Origin: a bacterium
GTDB lineage: Bacteria > Bacillota_I > Bacilli_A > RFN20 > CAG-288
Direction of reading: 5' to 3'
DNA length: 64,000 bases
Assembly: GCA_963643715.1 (NCBI GenBank)
Contig: CAVILQ010000003.1
Location: forward strand, 3,219-67,218
The notes beneath the pieces were generated by a model. It was not told the DNA's origin. It did no database searches and saw only the letters and a program-made list of their open reading frames with translations. Positions 5,245 to 58,163 of the stretch are shown here, in pieces (the stretch's first letter is position 1; every line of letters begins with the position of its first letter). The position numbers and the translations under genes were made by a program.

Positions 5245-5829
5245 ATGATAGATAATACCAAGAAGACGTTTTTCGAAATTAGAGTGCTTCAGGAAGCATT
5301 GAAAGATATTTCCTTTCTAGAAGAAATACTGCGGATACTGTTGTTTGATGAATCTTTGACTCTTGTCAAATGTGAGGAAAATAAACTGATTTCGATTGAA
5401 GAAAGCATCGTATTCTCTTATGACTTTGTCGCTTTCGGAAAAGAAAAAGGAATCTACGGAATCTGTCTTCTTGATCGTTACGAGAAAGAGATGAAAAATG
5501 ATTTCCTTTCCATTCATGGTCTATTGAGAAACACATATGATAAAGAGAATAGAAGAGATGACATCTATACACTATGCTTCTGTAAAGGAGAGGAAGAGAA
5601 AAGACAATCCTACTACATCCCAGAAATCGATTTAGTTCAGATGTTCGGAAAATATGAATTTATCGACAAAGGGATCCGTTTCTTTGTGCTTCAGAAGATA
5701 GCTAAGCCAGCATCCATGCTAGAATCCGTCATAAATGACTTTGCATGTGAAGAAATATCCGACATTCAAAATGAGTTCATACGCGAGAAATTAGAATGGA
5801 CACTATGGGAGTTGAAGTATAAGAAGTAA
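5245..5829 (+). CDS. hypothetical protein (194 aa, no recognised motif)
   Basis: ORF with protein-like composition between terminator and next promoter; no family recognised. Confidence 0.4.
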   Translation: MIDNTKKTFFEIRVLQEALKDISFLEEILRILLFDESLTLVKCEENKLISIEESIVFSYDFVAFGKEKGIYGICLLDRYEKEMKNDFLSIHGLLRNTYDKENRRDDIYTLCFCKGEEEKRQSYYIPEIDLVQMFGKYEFIDKGIRFFVLQKIAKPASMLESVINDFACEEISDIQNEFIREKLEWTLWELKYKK

Positions 5830-5986
5830 AGAATAAGTAACGACTTGAAACTATGCTTTGAATTGGATTTTACGTCTTCCTTTTCATTGAATCTGGTGAT
5901 CAAAAAAACAAAAGTGATAAAAGCGCTTTCATAGGAATGCCGTTGGATTTTGATTTGATATACTAAGTTGAAAGAGAGATTACATC

Positions 5987-27136: not shown

Positions 27137-27577
27137 ATGGTAGAAAAATCATTAGTCAGCGTCGCTTATGAGATCCTTAGCGAAGACTATAACAACGGAA
27201 AGACAAATCCGAAGCCCTTCCTTGAACTTTGTTCTGAAATCTGCAGCAGAGTCAATTTGACAGAAGAGGAATTCATGAAGTTGGTTTCCCGCTTCTATAC
27301 TGACCTGACATTGGATGGACGTTTCGTCATCAAAGAGAACAATACATGGGTCTTAAGAGAACATGTAAAGTACAAAGAACTTCATACCGACATGAATAAG
27401 GCTTATTCTGAAATGGTCGATGATGATGAATTTGATGAAAACGGAAAGAAGAAATCAGAAGAAAATGGTGATGATGTCGAAGAATCCGAACTCTTCAACG
27501 ATAATGAAGACGATAACTATGGACTTGACGATAAAGTTGAGAGCGGCACGGATGACGAAGACGGAGAAAACGACTGA
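27137..27577 (+). CDS. rpoE: DNA-directed RNA polymerase subunit delta
   Basis: N-terminal HARE-HTH LVSVAYEIL...FYTDLTLDGRFV (cf. B. subtilis IAQFYTDLNIDGRFL) plus D/E-rich acidic C-terminal tail. Confidence 0.8.
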   Translation: MVEKSLVSVAYEILSEDYNNGKTNPKPFLELCSEICSRVNLTEEEFMKLVSRFYTDLTLDGRFVIKENNTWVLREHVKYKELHTDMNKAYSEMVDDDEFDENGKKKSEENGDDVEESELFNDNEDDNYGLDDKVESGTDDEDGEND

Positions 27578-32209: not shown

Positions 32210-32560
32210 TCAGTCTTTCTTCTCTTCATTTCTATGAATGCTGTCTTCCTTGTTGAAATGATTTCCGTGATATCTCTTGTGAAGTTTATCGAGATTGTAC
32301 TGAGCCACCTCTTCTAATGTGACATTCAGGCCGGAAGCAGTCTCTGCAATATACCAAAGGACATCGCCTAATTCTTCCATAAGATGCTCTTTGTTCAGCT
32401 CATGACCTTGGAATCGAGTCTTCTTGACGATGTCACAGCATTCGCCGCTTTCACCGGCTAAGCCGAGCACCCCGTTGAGAACCATATCCTTTTTGCCGTC
32501 TTCACTGATCAGGTCATAGGCCTCTTTCTGATATTCGTTGAAATTGATTTTGTCGCTCAT
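32210..32560 (-). CDS. MazG-like nucleotide pyrophosphohydrolase (small all-alpha NTP-PPase)
   Basis: EELGDVLWYI motif (MazG EExGDxL), 116 aa. Confidence 0.75.
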   Translation of the reverse strand: MSDKINFNEYQKEAYDLISEDGKKDMVLNGVLGLAGESGECCDIVKKTRFQGHELNKEHLMEELGDVLWYIAETASGLNVTLEEVAQYNLDKLHKRYHGNHFNKEDSIHRNEEKKD

Positions 32561-33102: not shown

Positions 33103-33372
33103 ATGGTACAAAATGACAAGATAAATCAAGAAAAGGCGATGTCATATTTGAAAGCTGGATATCACCTAGTAAGCATCATCGGGAAAAGAGAAGTCAGATT
33201 CTCCTATAGTCAAGGTAAGATACTTGTGTTTGGAGAAGAGCATTTCTTATCACTTAATGAGTATTCCTTCAAAGAAATTTATCATGATTGTCTTTTCCAG
33301 TTGGATACAGAAAACGAGGAAGAGACAGTCGATATGAAGAAAGATGAAGAGTATTACTCATGGAAGCAATAA
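33103..33372 (+). CDS. hypothetical small protein (89 aa)
   Basis: ORF only; may start at internal MSYLK; divergent from nudix operon. Confidence 0.3.
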   Translation: MVQNDKINQEKAMSYLKAGYHLVSIIGKREVRFSYSQGKILVFGEEHFLSLNEYSFKEIYHDCLFQLDTENEEETVDMKKDEEYYSWKQ

Positions 33373-33693: not shown

Positions 33694-36600
33694 TTAGATT
33701 ACGCCGAAGAAATAGTTCTTTGTAGAATCAGAATAACTGAGAGTCAGCTTAGCTCCGTTATCCTGAACGGATCCGCCATTGATGAAGCCAAGGAAGTTTT
33801 TGGTGAACGTGTAGTCGACGAATTGGTAGTCAGCTAAGTTGACATAATCGCTGTTGCTATTATAGGCATTTAAGAAGGTGTTGTATCTAGCCATCTTCTC
33901 GTCGCGGATAGCATCTTCTGCATCACCGAGACAGATGTTGTTTCTTGTCGCGTTGAAGGTTAGAGTTCCATCCATAATGCCAGCAATAGAGAATTTGACT
34001 GACATATTGAGATTAGCCAGTTCCATGTCGGAATTATATCCGATGCTGATGTTGGTTCCCTGATCAGAGAAGCTGAGAACAGGAAGAGAAATCACCTTTC
34101 CTAATGAACAGGTCAGGTTCATTGATCCACTTCCGTCTTCATTTTCATTTAGTACAGCTTTATCGATGAGAGAGGAGTAGTTGTGGTTGATGACAACAGA
34201 GGAATCATCGCTGGTGCTCTTCGTAGCTTCAAGGACTTTCTGAAGCGTGATATAGCCAGCCTTGACACCAATAGCAGTAACGCTTTCGATGTTGAGGATG
34301 TAGCTTAAGAGGTAGTAAGCGATATTGTCAGTGATTTCCTTAGGAGTGAGTTTGTATAGCTCGACTTTCTTGTTTTTCTTGCTGTCGGTTGTGGTTCTTT
34401 CAGAGAGAACGAATTCGTTCTCGACGAAGAATTCAACACCATAGAAGTTTGCGCTATCGATTGTTGCGGAAGAGTTGCTCTTAAAGGAGAGATATGCTTT
34501 GACAGTGGAATCAACAATAGAGACATAGACCTGATAGTAAGTGTTCATTGTGATGGCATTGATACCGATAACGGATGCATTAAGATTCATGCTTCCGCTT
34601 AAATCAAAGAAGTGGTGGTTGGTAGTTGTGATACCGCAGTTGATTAAAGTATCGAAACCGTGAACATCGACAAAGTTAGCTTTTGTGCTATCGTTGTATT
34701 CGATAGTTGGTTTTAAACTAGCGTCATATTCGCCTAGATTGATTTCAGCATGTAAAGAATAACCATCGTAGTATCCGTCAATCTCTGCTTTGCTGATTTT
34801 ATAGTTGTCATCGAATGTGACAATGATCGTATCGACATTGTCAGAAGTGTCATTGCTGTTCAATATAGAGGAAGCGAGTTTCAATGTGACAGTCTTATCA
34901 TTGATTTCAACCAGTTTGATGTAGTCGTTTAAGAGGATGGTGTAGTCTTTGTTTTTGAAAGCGTCAAGGATAGGAAGACCAGTGACTACTTTTTCAGTTG
35001 TATCGAAGTAGGCTTTAAGATAACGATAGAGAAGGTTTGTCTTATTGTCTTTCAAGGAGGTGACTCTATCGTAGATGGAGAAGAGGTCGGAGTTGTTCAT
35101 GACAAGACTTGTCGTACCGGAGTCATTGTTGCTATCTGTATCCTTAGAAGTATACATGGCAACGGTCTGTCCGGCAGTATGAGTACCTGAGTAGAGATAA
35201 TCAATCTTATGATCCGTCTCCTTTTCATAGCTATCAGGCTGCTGTAAGAGATGGAGTGTACCACCGACATCCGGGCTATCTTTATCTGTGATATCGACCT
35301 GAGCATCACCATAGATACCGAGATAGGATTGATACTGTTCGGTATCATCCTTCTTCTTGATTTCACCGTTTAAGTTAACGGAGAATTGTTTCAAATCGGT
35401 TGGAAGTGAATAGAATCCATTGATGATCTTGCTGGCAGAATCGATTTCGGTATAGTACTTTGTCTCTTCATCTGACAGATGGAAGTCTTTGTATTCATCC
35501 TGAAGTTTCAATGTGAAGTCTAATTTTAGCTTGTTGTTGATTTCAAATCCTTTGCAGGAAATAGCGGTGATGGAGTCGTCGTCGGTGTTGACATAGAGGG
35601 AAAGGCTAGAAATTTCATCAGCAAGGGTGGAACCTGCAAAGAACAAAGGAAGATTGATATCGAGTTTCAAGACATTGGAATCAACATTGTCTTTGTCCAA
35701 TGAGAGATAGTCTTCGATGCATTTAATGGAATAACTTCCTTTGATTTCATCAATGATGGAGTGAATGACCGTATTCATACTGTCAAAGGCCTGGGAAGTA
35801 TTCTCTTTATCTTTGTTTACGATATCGTAGATGTTGCCGACTTCACTATCAGACATCTTCTGCTTGAAGAAGTTATCCATCTGCAAGTATAAATCATGGT
35901 TCTGGTAGACAAAGTCAAGATTATGGTCATATCCATTGAGATTGGTGGCTAATGTCAAACGATAGTCGCCATAATAATTGTTTCCGGTATCGAGTGAAAG
36001 AGATGTGACATCAGCTGAGATTTCGCCGTTAGCAAGATAGTTGCTTCCTTCGGCGATATTCTGAAGATTGAATGAATAGGTCGTATTGATCTTACGTTCA
36101 TCAGCAAGCTTTGTCACAGTGTTGAATATGGAGATGATACCGCAATAGTCTTTGAAGGAAGCGAATTCAGCATCGGTGTACTGGAAGGAAATGTTATCCT
36201 GTGGCTTGACATCGATAGTGAAATCAAGATTGATGTTTCTATAGGAGAAGTTCTCGATCGTGATCTTGAATCCTTCAGACACATCAGTAGAAGAGTTGTC
36301 TAAAGTGATTTTCAAAATATAATCGCCTAAGCCAAATGCTTTTGCGTTGATGGAAAGAGCAAAACCATTTGTCGTGGTCTGGAAATCGGCAATGAAGTTC
36401 TTATACACAGACAAATCACCAGATAACAGCTTTGCAAAGTCCGTTCCTTCGATGATGCTATTAAGGCTCTTTGTAACATCCGGAAGATCCTCAGTATTGA
36501 TTTCAGAGGAGATGACACGAATGATGTCATCTAATGTAGAAGAAGAGATTTTACCTTTGATGAGATTGTTCAGTGCAACATAGATGTTGTTGTCCTTGTA

Positions 36601-37692
36601 AGAAGCATAGACATTGTTTGCAAGTGTTCCATTATTTAAATGTTCCAAGGAAACTTCGTATTTTCCTTTTGAGACATCCTCTGTAATAGTTGATAAGTCG
36701 CTCTTTAATGTACCACGGAACGTCTGCTTCTGAATCGAATTGTCAGAGACGCTGACATCAGCATTGAAATCGGCAACGAAGTTCTTCTTTTCCATCAAGG
36801 ATGCGATGGAAGTGATGAGATTTGTCGTGCGTGTTGTATAGTCGGTATAGTGGGATTTTTGTTCATCTGTGAGTCCGTTATAGGAAGAAGCATCCTCAAT
36901 CTTGATACTGTTTACATCGAGCTTGATTCCATAGGAAGAATTGATCTCAATACCGGAATCTTCGACTGTTCTTCCGCCGATGAAGTTGTAATCGTTGTCC
37001 GCAACTAAAGCGAGTTTTGCACCTTTGATAGAGATAGGAAGATTCAAGGATGAAATGAAATCGTTGCAGTCAAGAATGTATTCATATCCTGTAGCAGTCT
37101 TCTTTTCTTCGACGGTGTCAAGAATGCCTAGAGCGCCATTCATCAAGGATGAAAGATCGAATGAACTTCCTAAATCAGGAATGGTAGGCACATTGATGTT
37201 CAATTTTGAGAGAACACCAGTGATACCGGCAATCGTTTTTGGAGCAGAGAACGAGAAAGATTTCTGATTGTAGTCGATATAGAGCATATCCGTATCGTAA
37301 TAAACGGATAATTCCTCATTAATATCCTTGTATTTGACATTCAATGTTCCGTTCAGCTTAAGCGAAGAGATATCGCCACTCAAAGCACCACTTAAATCGA
37401 TATCTAGATTACTGAAGTTCAGATAGATGTCATCGCTTTCGGTAGTAGATAAGGTGATGTCAGCGTTGTCCGCTTTGACTTCCTGCACCTTCATCAACTT
37501 GTTGATCATCTTCGAGAAGCCGGTTTCCTCAATCGGAGGATTGTAGATACTATCATCCTCGTCGTCATTAGAAGTATCGGTAGTATCTGTCTTAGCAGTA
37601 GTTCTAGTAAGCTTTTGATAAAGGTAAGATCCAGCACCAGATATGCTTAGAGTCAGCACGCTGATAAGAGGATATAAAATGATATGTTTCAT
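33694..37692 (-). CDS. giant (1332 aa) membrane-anchored extracytoplasmic protein, N/S/T/D-rich, beta-rich, function unknown
   Basis: N-terminal TM MKHIILYPLISVLTLSISGAGSYLY, no lipobox, no catalytic motif; 15 nt downstream of 370-aa partner gene; own bidirectional terminator. Confidence 0.6.
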   Translation of the reverse strand: MKHIILYPLISVLTLSISGAGSYLYQKLTRTTAKTDTTDTSNDDEDDSIYNPPIEETGFSKMINKLMKVQEVKADNADITLSTTESDDIYLNFSNLDIDLSGALSGDISSLKLNGTLNVKYKDINEELSVYYDTDMLYIDYNQKSFSFSAPKTIAGITGVLSKLNINVPTIPDLGSSFDLSSLMNGALGILDTVEEKKTATGYEYILDCNDFISSLNLPISIKGAKLALVADNDYNFIGGRTVEDSGIEINSSYGIKLDVNSIKIEDASSYNGLTDEQKSHYTDYTTRTTNLITSIASLMEKKNFVADFNADVSVSDNSIQKQTFRGTLKSDLSTITEDVSKGKYEVSLEHLNNGTLANNVYASYKDNNIYVALNNLIKGKISSSTLDDIIRVISSEINTEDLPDVTKSLNSIIEGTDFAKLLSGDLSVYKNFIADFQTTTNGFALSINAKAFGLGDYILKITLDNSSTDVSEGFKITIENFSYRNINLDFTIDVKPQDNISFQYTDAEFASFKDYCGIISIFNTVTKLADERKINTTYSFNLQNIAEGSNYLANGEISADVTSLSLDTGNNYYGDYRLTLATNLNGYDHNLDFVYQNHDLYLQMDNFFKQKMSDSEVGNIYDIVNKDKENTSQAFDSMNTVIHSIIDEIKGSYSIKCIEDYLSLDKDNVDSNVLKLDINLPLFFAGSTLADEISSLSLYVNTDDDSITAISCKGFEINNKLKLDFTLKLQDEYKDFHLSDEETKYYTEIDSASKIINGFYSLPTDLKQFSVNLNGEIKKKDDTEQYQSYLGIYGDAQVDITDKDSPDVGGTLHLLQQPDSYEKETDHKIDYLYSGTHTAGQTVAMYTSKDTDSNNDSGTTSLVMNNSDLFSIYDRVTSLKDNKTNLLYRYLKAYFDTTEKVVTGLPILDAFKNKDYTILLNDYIKLVEINDKTVTLKLASSILNSNDTSDNVDTIIVTFDDNYKISKAEIDGYYDGYSLHAEINLGEYDASLKPTIEYNDSTKANFVDVHGFDTLINCGITTTNHHFFDLSGSMNLNASVIGINAITMNTYYQVYVSIVDSTVKAYLSFKSNSSATIDSANFYGVEFFVENEFVLSERTTTDSKKNKKVELYKLTPKEITDNIAYYLLSYILNIESVTAIGVKAGYITLQKVLEATKSTSDDSSVVINHNYSSLIDKAVLNENEDGSGSMNLTCSLGKVISLPVLSFSDQGTNISIGYNSDMELANLNMSVKFSIAGIMDGTLTFNATRNNICLGDAEDAIRDEKMARYNTFLNAYNSNSDYVNLADYQFVDYTFTKNFLGFINGGSVQDNGAKLTLSYSDSTKNYFFGVI

Positions 37693-44469: not shown

Positions 44470-44814
44470 TTATTTGTTGTGTTCTTTGTTGTATTTCTCT
44501 AATTCTTTGTTTGCTTGTTCTTGTTCCTTCAATATTCTGATAAAGTCTTCTAGGCTCTGTTGTTCTTCTTGGACCAACTGAACATCTTTGATTTCAGGAA
44601 TTTCATCCATAAGAAGGACAGCGATTGTATCAGAAACATCCGAACTTGCCATATAGCAGCCGTTGCATGCGCCGCTCATTTTCACATAGCAAGTGTTGCT
44701 ATCGAAATCGTAGTGATCCAAGTGGACATCACCGCCTTCACGCTGTAAAAACGGGCGCAGTCTCTCTAATACATCGTTGATTTTTTCACAAAATTTTTCT
44801 TGTTCTTCATTCAT
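44470..44814 (-). CDS. NifU/Nfu-type Fe-S cluster scaffold domain protein
   Basis: REGGDVHLDHYD...VKMSGACNGCYMASSDV matches Nfu C-terminal GGD..L...G.C.GC motif. Confidence 0.75.
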   Translation of the reverse strand: MNEEQEKFCEKINDVLERLRPFLQREGGDVHLDHYDFDSNTCYVKMSGACNGCYMASSDVSDTIAVLLMDEIPEIKDVQLVQEEQQSLEDFIRILKEQEQANKELEKYNKEHNK

Positions 44815-44919
44815 AACTGATTTCTCCGTGAAACATTATATCACTCATGTAATTTAACTTTTTGAAATAAAATTCATTTTTTCTCTTTTGTGCATATATG
44901 TATTTATGGAGGCACAAAT

Positions 44920-46071
44920 ATGAGTAATTTTCTATGCTACAGATACAGAATGAATCTGAAAGACGAACAAAAGGAAGAGTTTGACGAACTGTATAGGTGT
45001 TATGTCGCAGTTATCAATCAGTCGATTGCCTTGATCTCTGTGAATGATGGATTTGGAAAGAGAAATATAGATTTGGATTTCAGTTTATGGAATCAGAAAA
45101 TGAGTGGTTTGCCAGAAACATGTTACATCAGAAAACGATTCTCCCCCTTATTGCATTATATAAGGAATACAGTCAGATACTATGAAAGAAGCAGACTACA
45201 AGGAAGAGCAGTTTCTAAGTGCAAAAATCCTCAATCTATTGTAGCTTCAATTCCATTTTATCCGAAGGATGTCAATATAAACTTTAAACGAACATCACCA
45301 AAGATGGCAGAATTGAATCTCTTGCCATTTGGGCCGATTCAATTACAGTATCATAGGCCGTTTCCGAAAGATAGCCATTGCATCCTGATGACTATGAAAA
45401 GAGAACTAGATAAGAGGTATTATCTAGATTTCCTATTAAACAATGCATATAGCACTCTTTTGCCAAAAAGGAACATTGAATTAGATGATATACTTGGCAT
45501 CGATTTCTCTTTGAAGCATTTCTTTGTCTCTACAGATGACACTATCTTTGCAAATATGCAAATGATCGTACCATCAAGAAAGAAACAAAAACTGATAGAA
45601 ATACGAAGGAATAATTATATTCGCTCAGAAGATGAATCCAAAAACAAAGAAAGAAAAAGAATGCTATATGTGGAATCATTAAGACGAATAAAAGAAAACA
45701 GAAGACAATACTTCTATACGCTAGCTCACAAGATTTTTGAAAAGTATGAAGCAGTAGCAGTTGAAACACTGGAACTTAGCAAAATAAAGGAAAACAAAAA
45801 TTATTCAAAATTGATTGTGAAGGAAAGTTATCATCAGTTTGAAATGATATTAGATGAAGTGGCGAAGAAAGAAGGAAAAAGAGTAATCAGAATCCCTAAA
45901 TGGTATCCATCATCAAAAATCTGTTCGTTTTGTGAAGCGAAAAAAGAAGACCTGAAAGTATATGAGAAGGAATGGATATGCCCTAACTGTAAAAAGATAG
46001 TCCAAAGAGACAAAAATGCGGCAGAGAACATCAAAAGGAAAGCCTATGAAATGATCAAAAAAGAAAAGTGA
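44920..46071 (+). CDS. tnpB: IS200/IS605-family TnpB (OrfB) RNA-guided endonuclease-like transposase accessory protein
   Basis: C-terminal zinc finger CSFC...CPNC followed by RDKNAAENIKRKA (RuvC-III DxNAAxNI hallmark); GGAGG RBS at 44909; no tnpA nearby. Confidence 0.85.
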   Translation: MSNFLCYRYRMNLKDEQKEEFDELYRCYVAVINQSIALISVNDGFGKRNIDLDFSLWNQKMSGLPETCYIRKRFSPLLHYIRNTVRYYERSRLQGRAVSKCKNPQSIVASIPFYPKDVNINFKRTSPKMAELNLLPFGPIQLQYHRPFPKDSHCILMTMKRELDKRYYLDFLLNNAYSTLLPKRNIELDDILGIDFSLKHFFVSTDDTIFANMQMIVPSRKKQKLIEIRRNNYIRSEDESKNKERKRMLYVESLRRIKENRRQYFYTLAHKIFEKYEAVAVETLELSKIKENKNYSKLIVKESYHQFEMILDEVAKKEGKRVIRIPKWYPSSKICSFCEAKKEDLKVYEKEWICPNCKKIVQRDKNAAENIKRKAYEMIKKEK

Positions 46072-46260
46072 AATGAATGTTTTCCAAGCCCATGGAAATA
46101 AGTCATTGTAGTCTGAGAAAAAACACCCTGAAGAGAAAACTCTAGAGATGACAGCGTAAGACATACGCATGGGACAACTCGAATCTAGTTCGAAATCAAT
46201 GAAAAAAGGTACTCGATATGAAAAACAAATCGATTATAAGAATAAAATCAGAATAGCGGA
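45990..46260 (+). ncRNA. Candidate TnpB omega-RNA / right-end scaffold region
   Basis: Inference from family biology; stem gcccatgg(46088-46095)...catgggac(46168-46175) and further local hairpins 3' of tnpB. Confidence 0.3.
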
Positions 46261-46337
46261 GAGAACAAATAGGAAAAGATTGAAACATGATTAAGAAGAG
46301 ATATGAAACTCTTCAGTTTTTCAATTTGGTATAGATA

Positions 46338-46370
46338 GTATAAAAACAAAAAAAGCCAATCACTTGGCTT
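46338..46370 (-). terminator. Rho-independent terminator of tRNA operon
   Basis: aagccaa-tcac-ttggctt; on minus strand followed by TTTTTTTGTTTTT. Confidence 0.55.
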
Positions 46371-46401
46371 TAAAGACGATATAGTAGGACAGGAGATTTA
46401 A

Positions 46402-46489
46402 TGGTGCCCGGGGCCGGACTTGAACCGGCACGGATTATTAGTCCGCGGGATTTTAAATCCCGTGCGTCTACCGATTTCGCCACCCGGGC
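46402..46489 (-). tRNA. tRNA-Leu (anticodon TAA), long variable arm, CCA encoded
   Basis: Folded by hand: acceptor GCCCGGG/CCCGGGC, anticodon loop TTTAAAA, variable arm CGGACTAATAATCCGTG, T-loop TTCAAGT. Confidence 0.85.
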
Positions 46490-46496
46490 AAGAAGA

Positions 46497-46572
46497 TGGT
46501 GACTCGTATGGAACTCGAATCCATGGCCCCTTGATTAAAAGTCAAGTGCTCTACCGACTGAGCTAACGAGTC
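46497..46572 (-). tRNA. tRNA-Lys (anticodon TTT), CCA encoded
   Basis: Acceptor GACTCGT/ACGAGTC, D-arm GCTCAGTCGGTAGAGC, anticodon stem CTTGA/TCAAG loop CTTTTAA, T-arm ATGGA-TTCGAGT-TCCAT. Confidence 0.9.
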
Positions 46573-46579
46573 ATTTAAT

Positions 46580-46654
46580 TGGCTGGGATAGAAGGGCTCG
46601 AACCTTCGCATATCAGAGTCAAAGTCTGATGCCTTACCACTTGGCTATATCCCA
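46580..46654 (-). tRNA. tRNA-Gln (anticodon TTG), CCA encoded
   Basis: TGGGATATAGCCAAGTGGTAAGGC...CTTTGAC...TATCCCAGCCA closely parallels Bacillus tRNA-Gln. Confidence 0.9.
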
Positions 46655-46709
46655 ACATATGGCCAGTGCACTGAATATTCCAACTGAAACATCAATAAGA
46701 TAACATAGG

Positions 46710-46793
46710 TGGTGGGCGGTCGTGGATTTGAACCACGGAACCCGAAGGAACAGATTTACAGTCTGCCGCATTTGGCCGCTTTGCTAACCGCCC
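46710..46793 (-). tRNA. tRNA-Tyr (anticodon GTA), long variable arm, CCA encoded
   Basis: Acceptor GGGCGGT/ACCGCCC, anticodon loop CTGTAAA, variable hairpin CCTTCGGG, T-arm CGTGG-TTCAAAT-CCACG. Confidence 0.85.
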
Positions 46794-46822
46794 ACATATT
46801 ACGCAACTGATCTTTACAAGAA

Positions 46823-46899
46823 TGGTGGATGCTAAGAGACTTGAACTCCTGACCCCCGCCGTGTAAAGGCGATGCTCTAACCAACTGAGCTAAGCATCC
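46823..46899 (-). tRNA. tRNA-Val (anticodon TAC), CCA encoded
   Basis: Acceptor GGATGCT/AGCATCC, D-arm GCTCAGTTGGTTAGAGC, anticodon stem TCGCC/GGCGG loop TTTACAC, T-loop TTCAAGT. Confidence 0.85.
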
Positions 46900-49082: not shown

Positions 49083-49145
49083 GTTTTAATTGTATCACAA
49101 TAATTGAATATAGTTTTTCTCATTGTGATTTGATATTATCATTTT

Positions 49146-50144
49146 ATGTCCAAAAAATTGATTACACCAGTATTGCTTATCGTGTTGCTTGCTTCATGCA
49201 AGATAAAAGGCTATGAAGAGTCCGACTCATCTATAGGTCACCCGAGTTCACAAACAGACCACGTAGATAAATCGGATACCGTTTTTACCGATGAAACGCA
49301 TTCGGATAATAATTCCACCACATCAAAAATAACGGAAAAGGAACCGACCACTGATCCCTATATAAACATTACAGAAAAAGAGTTTTACGCAAACTACGTT
49401 CCGGCAACAAGCTATTCCGATAGCCGCTATCGAACAGCCCATCATTTCATGTCTGGTTCTATAGCGGAGCAGTTACAAAGACCGACTATCGCTGAAGATC
49501 AACCGATGGAAGACGGAATGTATTGCTTCAATTCAAAAAGTGGTCTCCGTTCAGATGGAAATGCATATGATATTGTGGATAAAGACGGAAGAATCGTGAA
49601 CACTATATATAAAGGTGGGGCCTATGTCATCCTAGAAGAAGTGGCTGCCTATCTATATGCGTTTGGTGATATACCGGCAAACTATACCTCGTCGAAAAAA
49701 GCAAAACCATCATCAAGTCCTTGGGGGAAATATCTAAGACTGAATCATAGTTACTTCTCTTGTGATACTGATCAATATAAATATGAACCCGTTCTTCCAG
49801 AAGTGAATGATAAAAAATATTATGAAATCGATGTCGGAACAACAGGCAGTTTTGAATATTCAACGGTCAGCACAAAAGGCGAATACAATAACGGGACCAC
49901 GATAATCCGTGGAGCCTCGAGATTAGTTTATACAAGATATATCGGAAATAATCTGATTGAAAAACCGGAAGACAGAAAAGTGTTCTATACATTCAATCAT
50001 TACAATGACTTCCAAGAATATCTCAACTATGAAAATGGATGGGGACAATGGTTTGGCAATATATCCGGTGGTGGAACCATGGATAACAACACCGCCATTT
50101 ACAAGACAAGTTATCCATCCGTGTATAAGAAAAACTTTTGGTAA
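49146..50144 (+). CDS. secreted lipoprotein with C-terminal barnase-like (microbial guanyl-specific RNase, PF00545-type) domain
   Basis: Lipobox LLASCK; C-domain aligns to barnase: VAAYLYAFGDIPANYTSS/VADYLQTYHKLPDNYITKS, catalytic Glu in YYEIDVG/WREADIN, Arg in GASRLVYT/NSDRILYS, His in TFNHYNDF/TTDHYQTF. Confidence 0.75.
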   Translation: MSKKLITPVLLIVLLASCKIKGYEESDSSIGHPSSQTDHVDKSDTVFTDETHSDNNSTTSKITEKEPTTDPYINITEKEFYANYVPATSYSDSRYRTAHHFMSGSIAEQLQRPTIAEDQPMEDGMYCFNSKSGLRSDGNAYDIVDKDGRIVNTIYKGGAYVILEEVAAYLYAFGDIPANYTSSKKAKPSSSPWGKYLRLNHSYFSCDTDQYKYEPVLPEVNDKKYYEIDVGTTGSFEYSTVSTKGEYNNGTTIIRGASRLVYTRYIGNNLIEKPEDRKVFYTFNHYNDFQEYLNYENGWGQWFGNISGGGTMDNNTAIYKTSYPSVYKKNFW

Positions 50145-50182
50145 AAAAAGATGGTTGGCTCACTCGCCAACCATCTTTTTAT
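50143..50182. terminator. Bidirectional rho-independent terminator
   Basis: aaaaaa-gatggttggc-tcactc-gccaaccatc-ttttt between convergent genes. Confidence 0.7.
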
Positions 50183-54554: not shown

Positions 54555-54878
54555 ATGAATCAAAAAAACTATGGTACGAAGCTGAACTTAGGTATTGTTG
54601 GCGGTGTCTTATCTTTAATCCTAGGTGGTGGAAGCGTTATTGGATTTTTGGTGTTCCTTATTGTCGCGGTTTTTGCGGCAATCGGTCTTTCAACATATCA
54701 AGAAGGAACAGAAGCCTGGATAAAGCAAAACGCTGTCGTGCAGAATTATGAATTCCTCGCCTATTTATTTGCCGCTCTTGCAGTCGTCTTCGTTGTATTA
54801 GGAATCGTTTTGTTAGTTGTTTTCATCAAAAAGAAGAAAAATTTGAAGAAACAAGCAATCAATACTGAAGAGAAGTGA
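54555..54878 (+). CDS. small membrane protein (2-3 TM), unknown function
   Basis: AAAGGAG RBS 9 nt upstream; hydrophobic helices LGIVGGVLSLILGGGSVIGFLVFLIVAVFAAIGL and FAALAVVFVVLGIVLLVVFI. Confidence 0.5.
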   Translation: MNQKNYGTKLNLGIVGGVLSLILGGGSVIGFLVFLIVAVFAAIGLSTYQEGTEAWIKQNAVVQNYEFLAYLFAALAVVFVVLGIVLLVVFIKKKKNLKKQAINTEEK

Positions 54879-56442
54879 TGATTCCAATACTGTCTTCAGC
54901 GGATAAAGCAAAGGATAACGATTGAGACTGAACACCATATAGTGCACAATGATACTCGTATTGTTGCCCAAGATATGGTGTTCTTTTTGGTTTGATTATA
55001 GAATCGAAATAAAGGTTTTCCCCTCTTCTAGAGTAGGTGATGTCGACATCCATCTCTTTGTAAATTGGATAGATATCTGTGTTGTAATCGAAAACATATG
55101 ATTCACTGTTATTGTAATTGGCAGACGTGCCGATTCCCTTTCCATCCTGATTGACATCATCCATCCACCCGAACCAATCAAAACGAGTGACCCAACGGTC
55201 TTTTGTTTCTGTATCGTAGACAATGGGTAGGACAGTTCTCCAACACACTTCACTTCCACTATTGGGCTTTTCTGTATAGCTGATGGCACCATAGTTTTCT
55301 AACGACAGTTTCATAGTAAAATCACCTTTTAAGTCATTAGCATATTTAAGCCACAGGTTTTCATCGCTCCATCCAGTAGAATTGCTTCTATCGATGCTGT
55401 TTACATTTAGAGAATGAATTGCGCCAGAGTAAATCTGCTTTGCTTTGATTGTTTTACTTTCAGTTGCAAAGCCTGATAGTAGAGATTCATCACTCAGCTT
55501 GTAATTTGGAAGGTCACTGACAATAAAAGAATAGGAATAGGGTTCTTTTGCTGCTTTTGTATGCAATTCAAGAATGTTGTCATTCTCATCGACACATTCT
55601 AGCTCCGTGATGATGTAAGGCTCTGTTCTACTAATTACTTTACTATAATCGGCATCTTTAGAGACAATCAAATTATGAATTTCAGCATCACCAAGACAAA
55701 AACCATCTTTTTGAACGCAAGATAATATACCTTTATAAACTGTGTTGTATGTCGGATATTTGTTTCCATTTGTTCTATTGTTGAATAGTGTGAAGACTCT
55801 ATGTGTGTTTTTATAGATCACTGCCTTGTCAGAACTGAATGAGAATGTGTAAACGGCCTCCTCATTCTCCCTTAAGTAGAGATTTGAATCATAGTTGTTC
55901 TCAATATAGGAATCATAATAATAGAGAACATTACGATCATAAGATATGTAGGAGCTTGTGATTTCAAAGTCACTTCCTATGAATAAGGATTGATTAGCAT
56001 GAAGAGATTTTGCATAAAAGGTGAAAGACAATCCGAACTCTTCGTTGGCCATAAAGGAAGAAAAAGATGCATCTGCTTTTGGATCAGCAATTTCTTTCTC
56101 ATCATAATAATAGATAACGTTAATACATTCTTCTTCGTTCTTTTTAATGCCTTCAACTGTAGTGACATTCGGACTCATGAAAGGAATCTCAATATTGACA
56201 GGTATTGAATAAGGCTTGTTGGGTTCTAGAGACTTCGTCTCACGAGCAAGAAAGGTTCCATCTTCATAGCAGTAATTGATAACAAGCGTAGACTTTTCTT
56301 CACTGGAAGAAAAGCTTTCCGATTCCTGAATTTCTTCAGAATTATTTGATTGGGCTTGGTCGGAATACGAAAGGGATTCTTTTGCTTGGCAGGAGACGGA
56401 TAGACATAGAATCAAAGGTAGTATCAATACATTCTTTTTCAT
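54859..56442 (-). CDS. lipoprotein, unknown function (527 aa), upstream neighbour of CotH-family gene
   Basis: MKKNVLILPLILCLSVSCQAK lipobox with AAGGAG RBS; ORF-track TTG extension rejected. Confidence 0.55.
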   Translation of the reverse strand: MKKNVLILPLILCLSVSCQAKESLSYSDQAQSNNSEEIQESESFSSSEEKSTLVINYCYEDGTFLARETKSLEPNKPYSIPVNIEIPFMSPNVTTVEGIKKNEEECINVIYYYDEKEIADPKADASFSSFMANEEFGLSFTFYAKSLHANQSLFIGSDFEITSSYISYDRNVLYYYDSYIENNYDSNLYLRENEEAVYTFSFSSDKAVIYKNTHRVFTLFNNRTNGNKYPTYNTVYKGILSCVQKDGFCLGDAEIHNLIVSKDADYSKVISRTEPYIITELECVDENDNILELHTKAAKEPYSYSFIVSDLPNYKLSDESLLSGFATESKTIKAKQIYSGAIHSLNVNSIDRSNSTGWSDENLWLKYANDLKGDFTMKLSLENYGAISYTEKPNSGSEVCWRTVLPIVYDTETKDRWVTRFDWFGWMDDVNQDGKGIGTSANYNNSESYVFDYNTDIYPIYKEMDVDITYSRRGENLYFDSIIKPKRTPYLGQQYEYHCALYGVQSQSLSFALSAEDSIGIITSLQY

Positions 56443-56453
56443 GCTTTTCTCCT

Positions 56454-58163
56454 TTAGTACATACAAAGTATGTTTTTGATTTCAGAAAGAAACGTCCCGC
56501 TCTTCTTCTCAAAGAAATTGAAAACATCATTGATATCTTTGTTCCAAGAAGATAAATCCTCTTCTTTTTGTCCCCATCTTAAAGACGAATAATTGTGATA
56601 AGGTCTAACCTCATCAATCATTCTGTTCATTGTGTTCATACAATTGTATGGTGAAAGAATTGTATTCACTAATTCGGATGCTCGATTGTATAAAGCATCA
56701 CGGAAAGATTGATTTGACATCAGTTTCTGAAAGAGAGGAAATTTGCAATACGCATTTGCGTGATACGGATACAAAGGATTCTGATAACTAGTGAAAGCAA
56801 AATCTGTATCGTGAAGAACGAATCTGAATTTTCCATCCTCATATTCGTTATCATCGTTTGCTTCTTGAACTGTCCACATCTTGAGATTATTGAAATTTCC
56901 AATGAAATCCCAATTTCCAGAATAAGCGTGTGCAAGAATGACGTCTAGGAAAGAATGAATATCTAAATACTTGTCAATGAATTGCTGATACACAGTATCA
57001 TTGCTGAAATCATTGTTTGATAGATAGGATTCCATTTCATTCAACTTCGTGATTCCAACCGTTTCATCCCCTTCATCAACAGACCAAGTTCCTTTTAAAT
57101 CGTAGGTGATTACATTATCTTTATCGACATCATAGTTGTTTTCAAAATAGACATCCTTATATTGCTCACGAATCGACATAATTCCCCAGTACTCTCCGTT
57201 TATATAGACAACTGCTGGGCGATAACCAGTGGTGGCCGCATAACCGTCCTTCATTATCTCTTGAAGAATGGCATCATTGATTCGTGTAGAAGATTCGAAA
57301 GCATTGCCTCCGTTATGAAGCCTTATCCTAGTGAGATTCGTCAGTCTTTTTGTGCTATCAGATCTCATAGTTCGATTTTCAAAGACATGCTCTTTTACTT
57401 TATCATTCTTCTTTCCGTTTTCGTCCTTGTTGAAATTGAGATTCAATGTTCTTTGCGGATAACCTAAAGTCCAATTTCCACCTAGCTTAACTTGTGTGTT
57501 TCTGTAAAAGTATTCGTTATATTTGCTGTCGAAATATTCTAAGTCTGCTCTTTTACTGATGTCCTCTCTGATTTTGTTATAAAAACCATTATCACCCATA
57601 ATATCTTCATAGGGAAGGGACAATGAGATGACAGGAATATCGATGTTTTCTGTTACCTTATCAGAGATGATATAGGTTAATGATCTTTTGAATACCGTTT
57701 GCTTTGTCTCTTTATCGATCACAGCGATTTTAACGACAGGCTGCTTGTCAAACAAGACATAATTTCCAGTCTTCTGAATGTTATTGATGTAAGTGTCAGA
57801 AACGCATTTTCCTTCTGTATCATCCGAAAGAATCGCGTCAACAGACTTGGTTACTGGATAGTTAGCGATGTTATTTGTTGAAGATTTGTTCACCGTGAAG
57901 GGCTTTTCGTATAATGTCATCGCTGAAACATCTGAATTGTCATAATTCAGACTATAGTAAAGCTCTAGATCGTCATCGATAGAGAAGGATAAAGTCTGTT
58001 CAGTAGAATAATATTCAGGCATCTTTGAAATGTAGATTCCAGAATATAATTCCGTATAACCGTTAGGTATGGCCTTAGTATCAGCACTGCTATTAAACAC
58101 AAAACCGGACATTAGCGATAATGTCGTTAGAGGATAAATTAGAAAACCCTTGATCTTTTTCAT
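56454..58163 (-). CDS. CotH kinase family protein (secreted)
   Basis: Signal peptide; CotH-like YINGEYWGIMSIREQ (cf. LYINGEYxGLY) and HDTDFAF (cf. WDxDxSFG); 569 aa. Confidence 0.6.
   Translation of the reverse strand: MKKIKGFLIYPLTTLSLMSGFVFNSSADTKAIPNGYTELYSGIYISKMPEYYSTEQTLSFSIDDDLELYYSLNYDNSDVSAMTLYEKPFTVNKSSTNNIANYPVTKSVDAILSDDTEGKCVSDTYINNIQKTGNYVLFDKQPVVKIAVIDKETKQTVFKRSLTYIISDKVTENIDIPVISLSLPYEDIMGDNGFYNKIREDISKRADLEYFDSKYNEYFYRNTQVKLGGNWTLGYPQRTLNLNFNKDENGKKNDKVKEHVFENRTMRSDSTKRLTNLTRIRLHNGGNAFESSTRINDAILQEIMKDGYAATTGYRPAVVYINGEYWGIMSIREQYKDVYFENNYDVDKDNVITYDLKGTWSVDEGDETVGITKLNEMESYLSNNDFSNDTVYQQFIDKYLDIHSFLDVILAHAYSGNWDFIGNFNNLKMWTVQEANDDNEYEDGKFRFVLHDTDFAFTSYQNPLYPYHANAYCKFPLFQKLMSNQSFRDALYNRASELVNTILSPYNCMNTMNRMIDEVRPYHNYSSLRWGQKEEDLSSWNKDINDVFNFFEKKSGTFLSEIKNILCMY

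Follow-up and report, generated by a model that had tools for sequence, protein, structure and literature searches.

Among the systems that most closely resemble the protein described here are barnase, binase and balifase, the secreted, guanyl-preferring Bacillus RNases of family PF00545. Phosphate starvation is an inducer of both binase and balifase. Only balifase of B. licheniformis is encoded in the same operon as its inhibitor, an organisation described as "unique" and not shared by barnase and binase (PMC5021464). Barnase-like domains are also widespread toxin modules paired with Imm-Barstar (PMC3482391). A further point of reference is provided by Mycoplasma membrane lipoprotein nucleases, which are reported to serve nucleotide salvage (PMC11729948, PMC12115388). 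Here we analysed a 64,000-nucleotide stretch of bacterial DNA (the window) that contains a gene whose product is, as predicted from its sequence, a lipid-anchored cell-surface protein built on a barnase-type RNase domain. The features of the locus are as follows.

49131 to 49139, + strand: candidate extended -10 element TGaTATTAT, read from the sequence, ending 6 nt before the ATG
49146 to 50144, + strand: complete RNase-lipoprotein gene, 332 aa, stop codon TAA at 50142-50144, from the ORF list
49146 to 49199, + strand: signal peptide and lipobox, residues 1-18 (L15-A16-S17-C18), with basic n-region, hydrophobic core and LASC in the translation
49200 to 49340, + strand: low-complexity Ser/Thr/Asp-rich tether, residues 19-65, with low pLDDT and unaligned among homologues
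49341 to 49619, + strand: conserved, family-specific N-terminal extension, residues 66-158
49620 to 50024, + strand: barnase-like RNase core, residues 159-293
50025 to 50141, + strand: conserved C-terminal tail, residues 294-332, with residues invariant among homologues and the motif NYExGWGxxFGNxxGGG...T.YP
50145 to 50180, both strands: intrinsic terminator, bidirectional, in the gap where the RNase and Na+/H+ exchanger genes converge, AAAAA-GATGGTTGGC-tcactc-GCCAACCATC-TTTTT

Domain architecture of the predicted RNase lipoprotein

The gene proposed by an earlier sequence-only reading of this DNA is present as an open reading frame of the expected extent, and an identical 332-aa protein is called on a public contig, where it has the same neighbours. 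No paralogue of the gene was found within the 64-kb window. The lipoprotein signal that had been proposed is canonical, consisting of MSKKLITPVLLIVLLAS followed by C18, in which a basic n-region and an h-region precede a lipobox of the form [LVI][ASTVI][GAS]C (MSKK-LITPVLLIVL-LAS, then C18). C18 is invariant in the 33 homologues of our main alignment (A1), and from these sequence features we infer that the protein is exported, lipidated and displayed on the outside of the membrane. The Ser/Thr/Asp-rich linker that was thought to follow over about 130 aa does exist as a low-complexity segment, but it covers only the 47 aa of residues 19-65 (62% S/T/D/E/P/N), whereas residues 66-158 form a conserved and structured extension of 93 aa. 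The tether is unalignable and of variable length in A1, and residues 17-60 are disordered in the AlphaFold2 model (pLDDT <50).

The extension contains 15 positions that are invariant in A1, namely D70, P71, Y72, F80, Y81, Y84, D92, R96, H99, S103, G104, P120, N129, Y141 and G148. A profile of the extension alone retrieved 235 clusters from 1.84 billion representative proteins. In the long matches whose coordinates were checked, the extension is trailed by a remainder of approximately 175-210 aa, about what the RNase core and tail together occupy, while segments upstream of it vary up to approximately 700 aa; many short matches look like fragments. When modelled alone the extension gave a pLDDT of 68 and a pTM of 0.46, compared with a pLDDT of about 91-98 in the full-length model. 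As the extension folds confidently only with the core and the matches checked carry an RNase-sized remainder behind it, we regard it as an integral part of a module of approximately 265 aa and not as an autonomous domain; the matches checked likewise give no support to the idea of a mobile domain reused elsewhere. The PDB contained no match for the fold of the extension.

Sequence evidence for the RNase domain is weak but specific. The sole Pfam match of the protein is PF00545 "Ribonuclease" (residues 209-291, E=0.0017), which supports the domain proposed from sequence alone, although its 19.3 bits fall short of the gathering cut-off of 24; the same profile matches 26 of the 33 family members at E<=0.01, with a best value of 1.1e-4. 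NCBIfam gave no match for the lipoprotein and neither did PADLOC. A family profile searched against all PDB sequences returned 13 matches, every one a barnase-type chain, with E values of 0.13-1. A single-sequence phmmer search of the same PDB sequences returned only nanobodies, which we discarded as spurious.

The correspondence with barnase emerged from profile-profile comparison using hhalign, in which core residues 155-300 of A1 were aligned over 100 columns (P=9e-6) with a template made of three sequences, barnase, binase and RNase Sa. Comparison of the full-length profile with a single barnase sequence aligned the first helix alone. In the core alignment, E227 corresponds to barnase E73, R255 to R83, R259 to R87 and H285-Y286 to H102-Y103, and IPANY (residues 176-180) corresponds to LPDNY, so that both the LPDNYIT-like segment (IPANYTS, 176-182) and the catalytic Glu, Arg and His positions named by the sequence-only reading could be confirmed. 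The remaining landmarks of the core are a helix at residues 163-173, W193, D229 and a candidate guanine loop, Y211-E214-P215. E227, R255, R259, H285, Y286 and IPANY are invariant both in A1 and in A3, a set of about 22 more distant members that are 41-55% identical. E214, which aligns with barnase E60, is invariant in A1 and nearly invariant in A3; the guanine loop itself (barnase S57-E60) is longer here by approximately 6 residues, and the position of barnase K27 is not conserved in the family. The lack of conservation at the K27 position together with the longer guanine-binding loop suggests that substrate and base specificity may differ from those of barnase.

The residue-by-residue match to barnase that had been claimed for the C-terminal ~110 aa therefore stands as regards the presence of a barnase-like domain but not as regards its extent, since the core occupies residues ~159-293, is interrupted at three places by insertions that barnase lacks (of about 6, 18 and 11 residues by hhalign) and is followed by a 39-aa tail that has no counterpart in barnase in the hhalign comparison. 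Twelve tail positions are listed as invariant in A1 (N294, Y295, G298, W299, G300, F303, G304, N305, G308, G309, T321 and Y323). The RNase module as a whole is acidic, with a pI of 5.3. The AlphaFold2 model built from A1 has a pTM of 0.76 and a pLDDT of at least 84 in most 10-residue blocks from residue 71 onwards, with dips at residues 231-250 and 301-320. It predicts an alpha+beta fold, an N-terminal helix on an antiparallel beta-sheet, as in the barnase/N1/T1 superfamily, and E227, H285, R255 and R259 align with the catalytic Glu, His and Arg residues of that superfamily. Structure prediction thus points to the barnase fold, but a Foldseek search of the PDB with the model gave nothing significant, RNase Sa appearing only at rank 29, and a search of viral structures (BFVD) returned nothing.

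Family distribution and gene neighbourhoods

The homologue search returned at least 1807 non-redundant sequences at E<=1e-3, among which none has a Pfam RNase annotation, the precomputed annotation assigning PF00545 to no homologue, and the few that are named are called "hypothetical protein"; none scores above a Pfam or NCBIfam threshold. By these sequence comparisons the ~265-aa module defines a large family without source annotation. The module is kept at 41-86% identity among the homologues that were aligned or matched by tblastn, and the architecture is uniform, with a lipoprotein signal followed by a variable tether or Big_2/PT repeats and then the conserved module. In GTDB contigs sampled at one genome per species, 420 stretches encode a relative. 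The best 80 of these 420 loci all come from MAGs or uncultured isolates, mostly of animal or human gut, and are almost all labelled Firmicutes, under the names Bacilli, Mollicutes, Erysipelotrichaceae, Anaeroplasmataceae, Clostridia, Eubacteriales, Oscillospiraceae and Lachnospiraceae. The nearest relatives are 86% and 80% identical. The 86%-identical copy (L003) lies on contig CAVALL010000014.1, labelled Alistipes onderdonkii, next to the same Na+/H+ exchanger as in the window, and the N-terminal sequence of that exchanger is nearly identical to the window's. Given this synteny, the contig is probably Firmicutes sequence mis-binned into a Bacteroidota MAG.

Within the window the gene is surrounded by PGI, an IspD-family gene, a Na+/H+ exchanger and PepF, in agreement with the ispD and cation antiporter neighbours reported from sequence alone. 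The RNase gene forms a single unit with its own strong terminator. A gap of 47 nt separates it from the convergent exchanger gene and contains the perfect 10-bp GC-rich stem, between an A-run and a T-run, that is common to both genes. This terminator (50145-50180) was missed by a consensus promoter/terminator scanner and was confirmed by folding (dG of -23 kcal/mol, z-score of -9.7, with 0 of 200 shuffles folding as well). On the other side, the RNase ATG is separated by 63 nt (49083-49145) from the start codon of the IspD-family gene, which is transcribed divergently. The candidate extended -10 element at 49131-49139 is absent from the scanner's list; in the window (L001) and its four closest relatives (L002-L005), a TGnTAT(T/C)AT sequence stops 6-7 nt short of the ATG and a Shine-Dalgarno sequence is absent, whereas more distant homologues have TGnTATAAT approximately 30 nt upstream together with an AGGAG Shine-Dalgarno sequence. 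With only 6 nt, and no Shine-Dalgarno sequence, separating the candidate -10 element from the ATG, the mRNA may be leaderless, and the comparison suggests that this putative leaderless state is specific to the clade of the window and L002-L005.

We further compared the flanks of 81 loci. Genes of nucleotide or nucleic-acid metabolism occur in 30 of the 81, with counts of 20 for thymidine kinase, 22 for a DHH/DHHA1 phosphoesterase, 16 for a SurE nucleotidase, 13 for an ExoIII-like nuclease (directly upstream and divergent) and 8 for an SNase-domain lipoprotein. These loci are not phylogenetically independent and the association, which may reflect the shared ancestry of a few clades, is suggestive only. 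At one locus labelled "Mollicutes UMGS171" (L007), a MazG-like nucleotide pyrophosphohydrolase gene (5645-5986) ends 15 nt upstream of the RNase homologue, and a close homologue of this MazG gene is found in the window at 32210-32560, 16 kb from the RNase gene. At ten loci, including L075 (2677-5574), a predicted lipoprotein of approximately 965 aa without a Pfam domain is encoded directly upstream of the RNase homologue on the same strand, and it may be a co-functioning surface protein.

Several other features of the window were recorded in passing. A TnpB/Cas12f-like ORF of the IS605 family (PF07282; PF01385 matches weakly) is immediately next to five clustered tRNA genes (Leu-TAA, Lys-TTT, Gln-TTG, Tyr-GTA and Val-TAC), the two occupying 44890-46071 (+) and 46402-46899 (-), respectively; no TnpA was seen next to it, and its 3' flank (46072-46400) could hold a guide (omega) RNA. 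Two large ORFs have no Pfam match at all: 33694-37692 (-), which encodes 1332 aa with a pI of 4.4, and 54859-56466 (-), which encodes 535 aa. The latter overlaps a CotH-kinase-family gene (56454-58163) at that gene's start, and the two may belong to one operon.

The absent barstar and the proposed function

The sequence-only reading had remarked on the lack of a nearby barstar. With barstar as the phmmer query, none of the window's 601 ORFs (stop to stop, 40 aa or longer) gave a match (best E 0.23), and Pfam scans of ten small non-overlapping window ORFs gave no PF01337 match, so that neither the immediate surroundings of the gene, re-inspected for small ORFs, nor the rest of the 64-kb window contains a recognisable barstar. 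Among the small acidic ORFs that were considered as candidates, 27137-27577 has a weak HARE-HTH match, 32210-32560 is the MazG-like gene mentioned above and 44470-44814 is NifU-like. The fourth, 33103-33372 (+), encodes 89 aa with a pI of 5.0, is barstar-like in size and charge and lies 16 kb from the RNase gene; it has no Pfam match, and it was rejected for want of similarity to barstar by phmmer. The ORFs of the 81 loci, with 6 kb flanks, likewise contained no barstar by phmmer, and clustering of the flanking ORFs revealed no conserved small neighbour, only occasional genes for ACT, MazG, GNAT and ribosomal protein L27 proteins and unclustered singletons, none with a barstar Pfam match. The absence had been presented as a departure from Bacillus, where barnase and binase genes were taken to be accompanied by barstar; this premise does not hold, the shared operon being a property of balifase only (PMC5021464). 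Since barnase and binase, too, are not linked to barstar, there is nothing anomalous about the lack of a barstar beside this gene.

We propose, as the reading we favour with moderate confidence, that the protein is a surface-anchored, metal-independent endoribonuclease of the barnase/N1-T1 type that scavenges extracellular RNA, as predicted from the features described above. The preprotein would be exported unfolded via Sec, and, judging from the lipobox, Cys18 would be lipidated and the signal peptide removed by signal peptidase II, leaving a disordered Ser/Thr/Asp-rich tether of approximately 47 residues to keep the ~265-residue globular module off the membrane. By residue-for-residue correspondence with barnase, E227 would act as general base and H285 as general acid, with R255 and R259 stabilising the transition state, and cleavage would proceed via a 2',3'-cyclic phosphate to 3'-nucleotides. 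The N-terminal extension, loop insertions and C-terminal tail may wrap the core and probably reshape substrate binding. The most likely role would be to break down extracellular RNA in the gut lumen into nucleotides, nucleosides and phosphate for uncultured gut Firmicutes, which has parallels in phosphate-starvation-induced binase and balifase and in the Mycoplasma membrane nucleases, and the producer is probably protected because the protein would fold only after export. The genes that flank it in the window have no link to nucleotide metabolism, which counts against a scavenging role.

Of the two readings offered from sequence alone, the membrane-tethered RNA-scavenging RNase is thus the one we prefer, and the other, an interbacterial or anti-host barnase-type toxin with a barstar-like immunity gene at some other place in the genome, appears distinctly unlikely. 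It draws on the pairing of barnase-like toxin modules with Imm-Barstar, on the precedent of barnase and binase for an unlinked barstar and on the fact that the inhibitor search covers 64 kb of the genome only. However, the searches of the window and of the 81 loci turned up no barstar, nor is there a conserved immunity-like neighbour, and PADLOC gave no match. The proteins carry no RHS, LXG, WXG or other delivery domain, their only additions being the lipoprotein signal and a tether or Big_2 repeats, and the trafficking or repeat domain (RHS, LXG, WXG or filamentous haemagglutinin) with a variable C-terminal cassette that marks polymorphic toxins is absent; instead conservation, at 41-86% identity, extends over the full 265-aa module, and the lipid anchor would retain the enzyme on the producer's own surface.

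The additions to the core raise the question of whether RNA in general is the substrate. The barnase-fold active site could have been retargeted to specific tRNAs or rRNA, to cyclic or linear oligonucleotides or to another phosphodiester polymer, with the extension, insertions and tail forming a new specificity pocket. The obligate 93-aa extension with its invariant R96, H99 and D92, the three insertions around the catalytic loops, the lengthened guanine loop, the unconserved K27 position and the acidic character of the module (pI 5.3) are all compatible with such a change. Nevertheless, we regard it as unlikely: all four catalytic residues have been kept, as has the Glu that aligns with guanine-binding E60, an acidic character is also shown by RNase Sa and RNase T1, and nothing that we observed positively indicates another substrate. 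It is tempting to speculate that the same three elements are a built-in regulator, either a cis-acting substitute for barstar that silences the enzyme until the protein is exported and anchored or a specificity module for a defined extracellular or host RNA; we consider this quite improbable, although either version, if true, would add a new regulatory architecture to the N1/T1 superfamily, one that occurs mainly in uncultured gut Firmicutes. Very improbable, in our view, is an autoinhibited zymogen in which the extension would mask the active site of its own polypeptide, taking the place of barstar, until the protein is exported or the extension is released by proteolysis. Such an arrangement would fit the failure to detect barstar in the window and the 81 loci, as well as the dependence of the extension on the core for confident folding and the RNase-sized remainder behind it in the matches checked, but the extension is conserved as strongly as the catalytic core, has no evident cleavage site, and folding after export already accounts for self-protection. 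Finally, many Gram-positive lipoproteins are solute-binding proteins, and a catalytically dead barnase-fold protein could serve as a nucleotide- or RNA-binding lipoprotein; this is extremely unlikely, since the family-wide invariance of E227, R255, R259 and H285 is hard to explain without catalysis.

Comparison with known RNases and surface nucleases

Altogether, the protein represents a well-known enzyme class in a new architectural form. The missing barstar is ordinary, and nothing known about barnase-type enzymes is overturned. The analysis removes the grounds for regarding the lack of an adjacent barstar as remarkable and provides a testable function for a widespread protein of hard-to-culture gut Firmicutes; the proposed scavenging role would point to extracellular RNA as a nutrient source for these bacteria.

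Barnase, binase and balifase are released from the cell, whereas this protein is predicted to be lipid-anchored. Their catalytic unit has 110 aa compared with 265 aa here, and they lack the obligate 93-aa N-terminal extension, the three loop insertions and the 39-aa tail. They are basic and come from Bacillus, in contrast to the acidic module of this family, in which K27 is not conserved and which scores below the Pfam gathering threshold and comes from uncultured gut MAGs. Similarity to RNase Sa of Streptomyces and RNase T1 of fungi is much lower, and both are small, free, single-domain proteins. As in the Tox-Barnase/Imm-Barstar modules of polymorphic toxin systems (Zhang et al. 2012, PMC3482391), a longer exported protein terminates in a catalytic domain of the barnase clade, but here that domain is accompanied neither by a neighbouring Imm-Barstar nor by an RHS, LXG, WXG or other delivery domain or C-terminal polymorphism, and the architecture is uniform and lipoprotein-anchored. 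The likeness to Mycoplasma MnuA and the SNase-type MAG_5040 is a functional analogy only: these are lipid-anchored surface nucleases that supply nucleotide precursors, yet they are metal-dependent, sugar-nonspecific, of unrelated fold and not homologous, whereas the fold predicted here is that of a metal-independent RNase.
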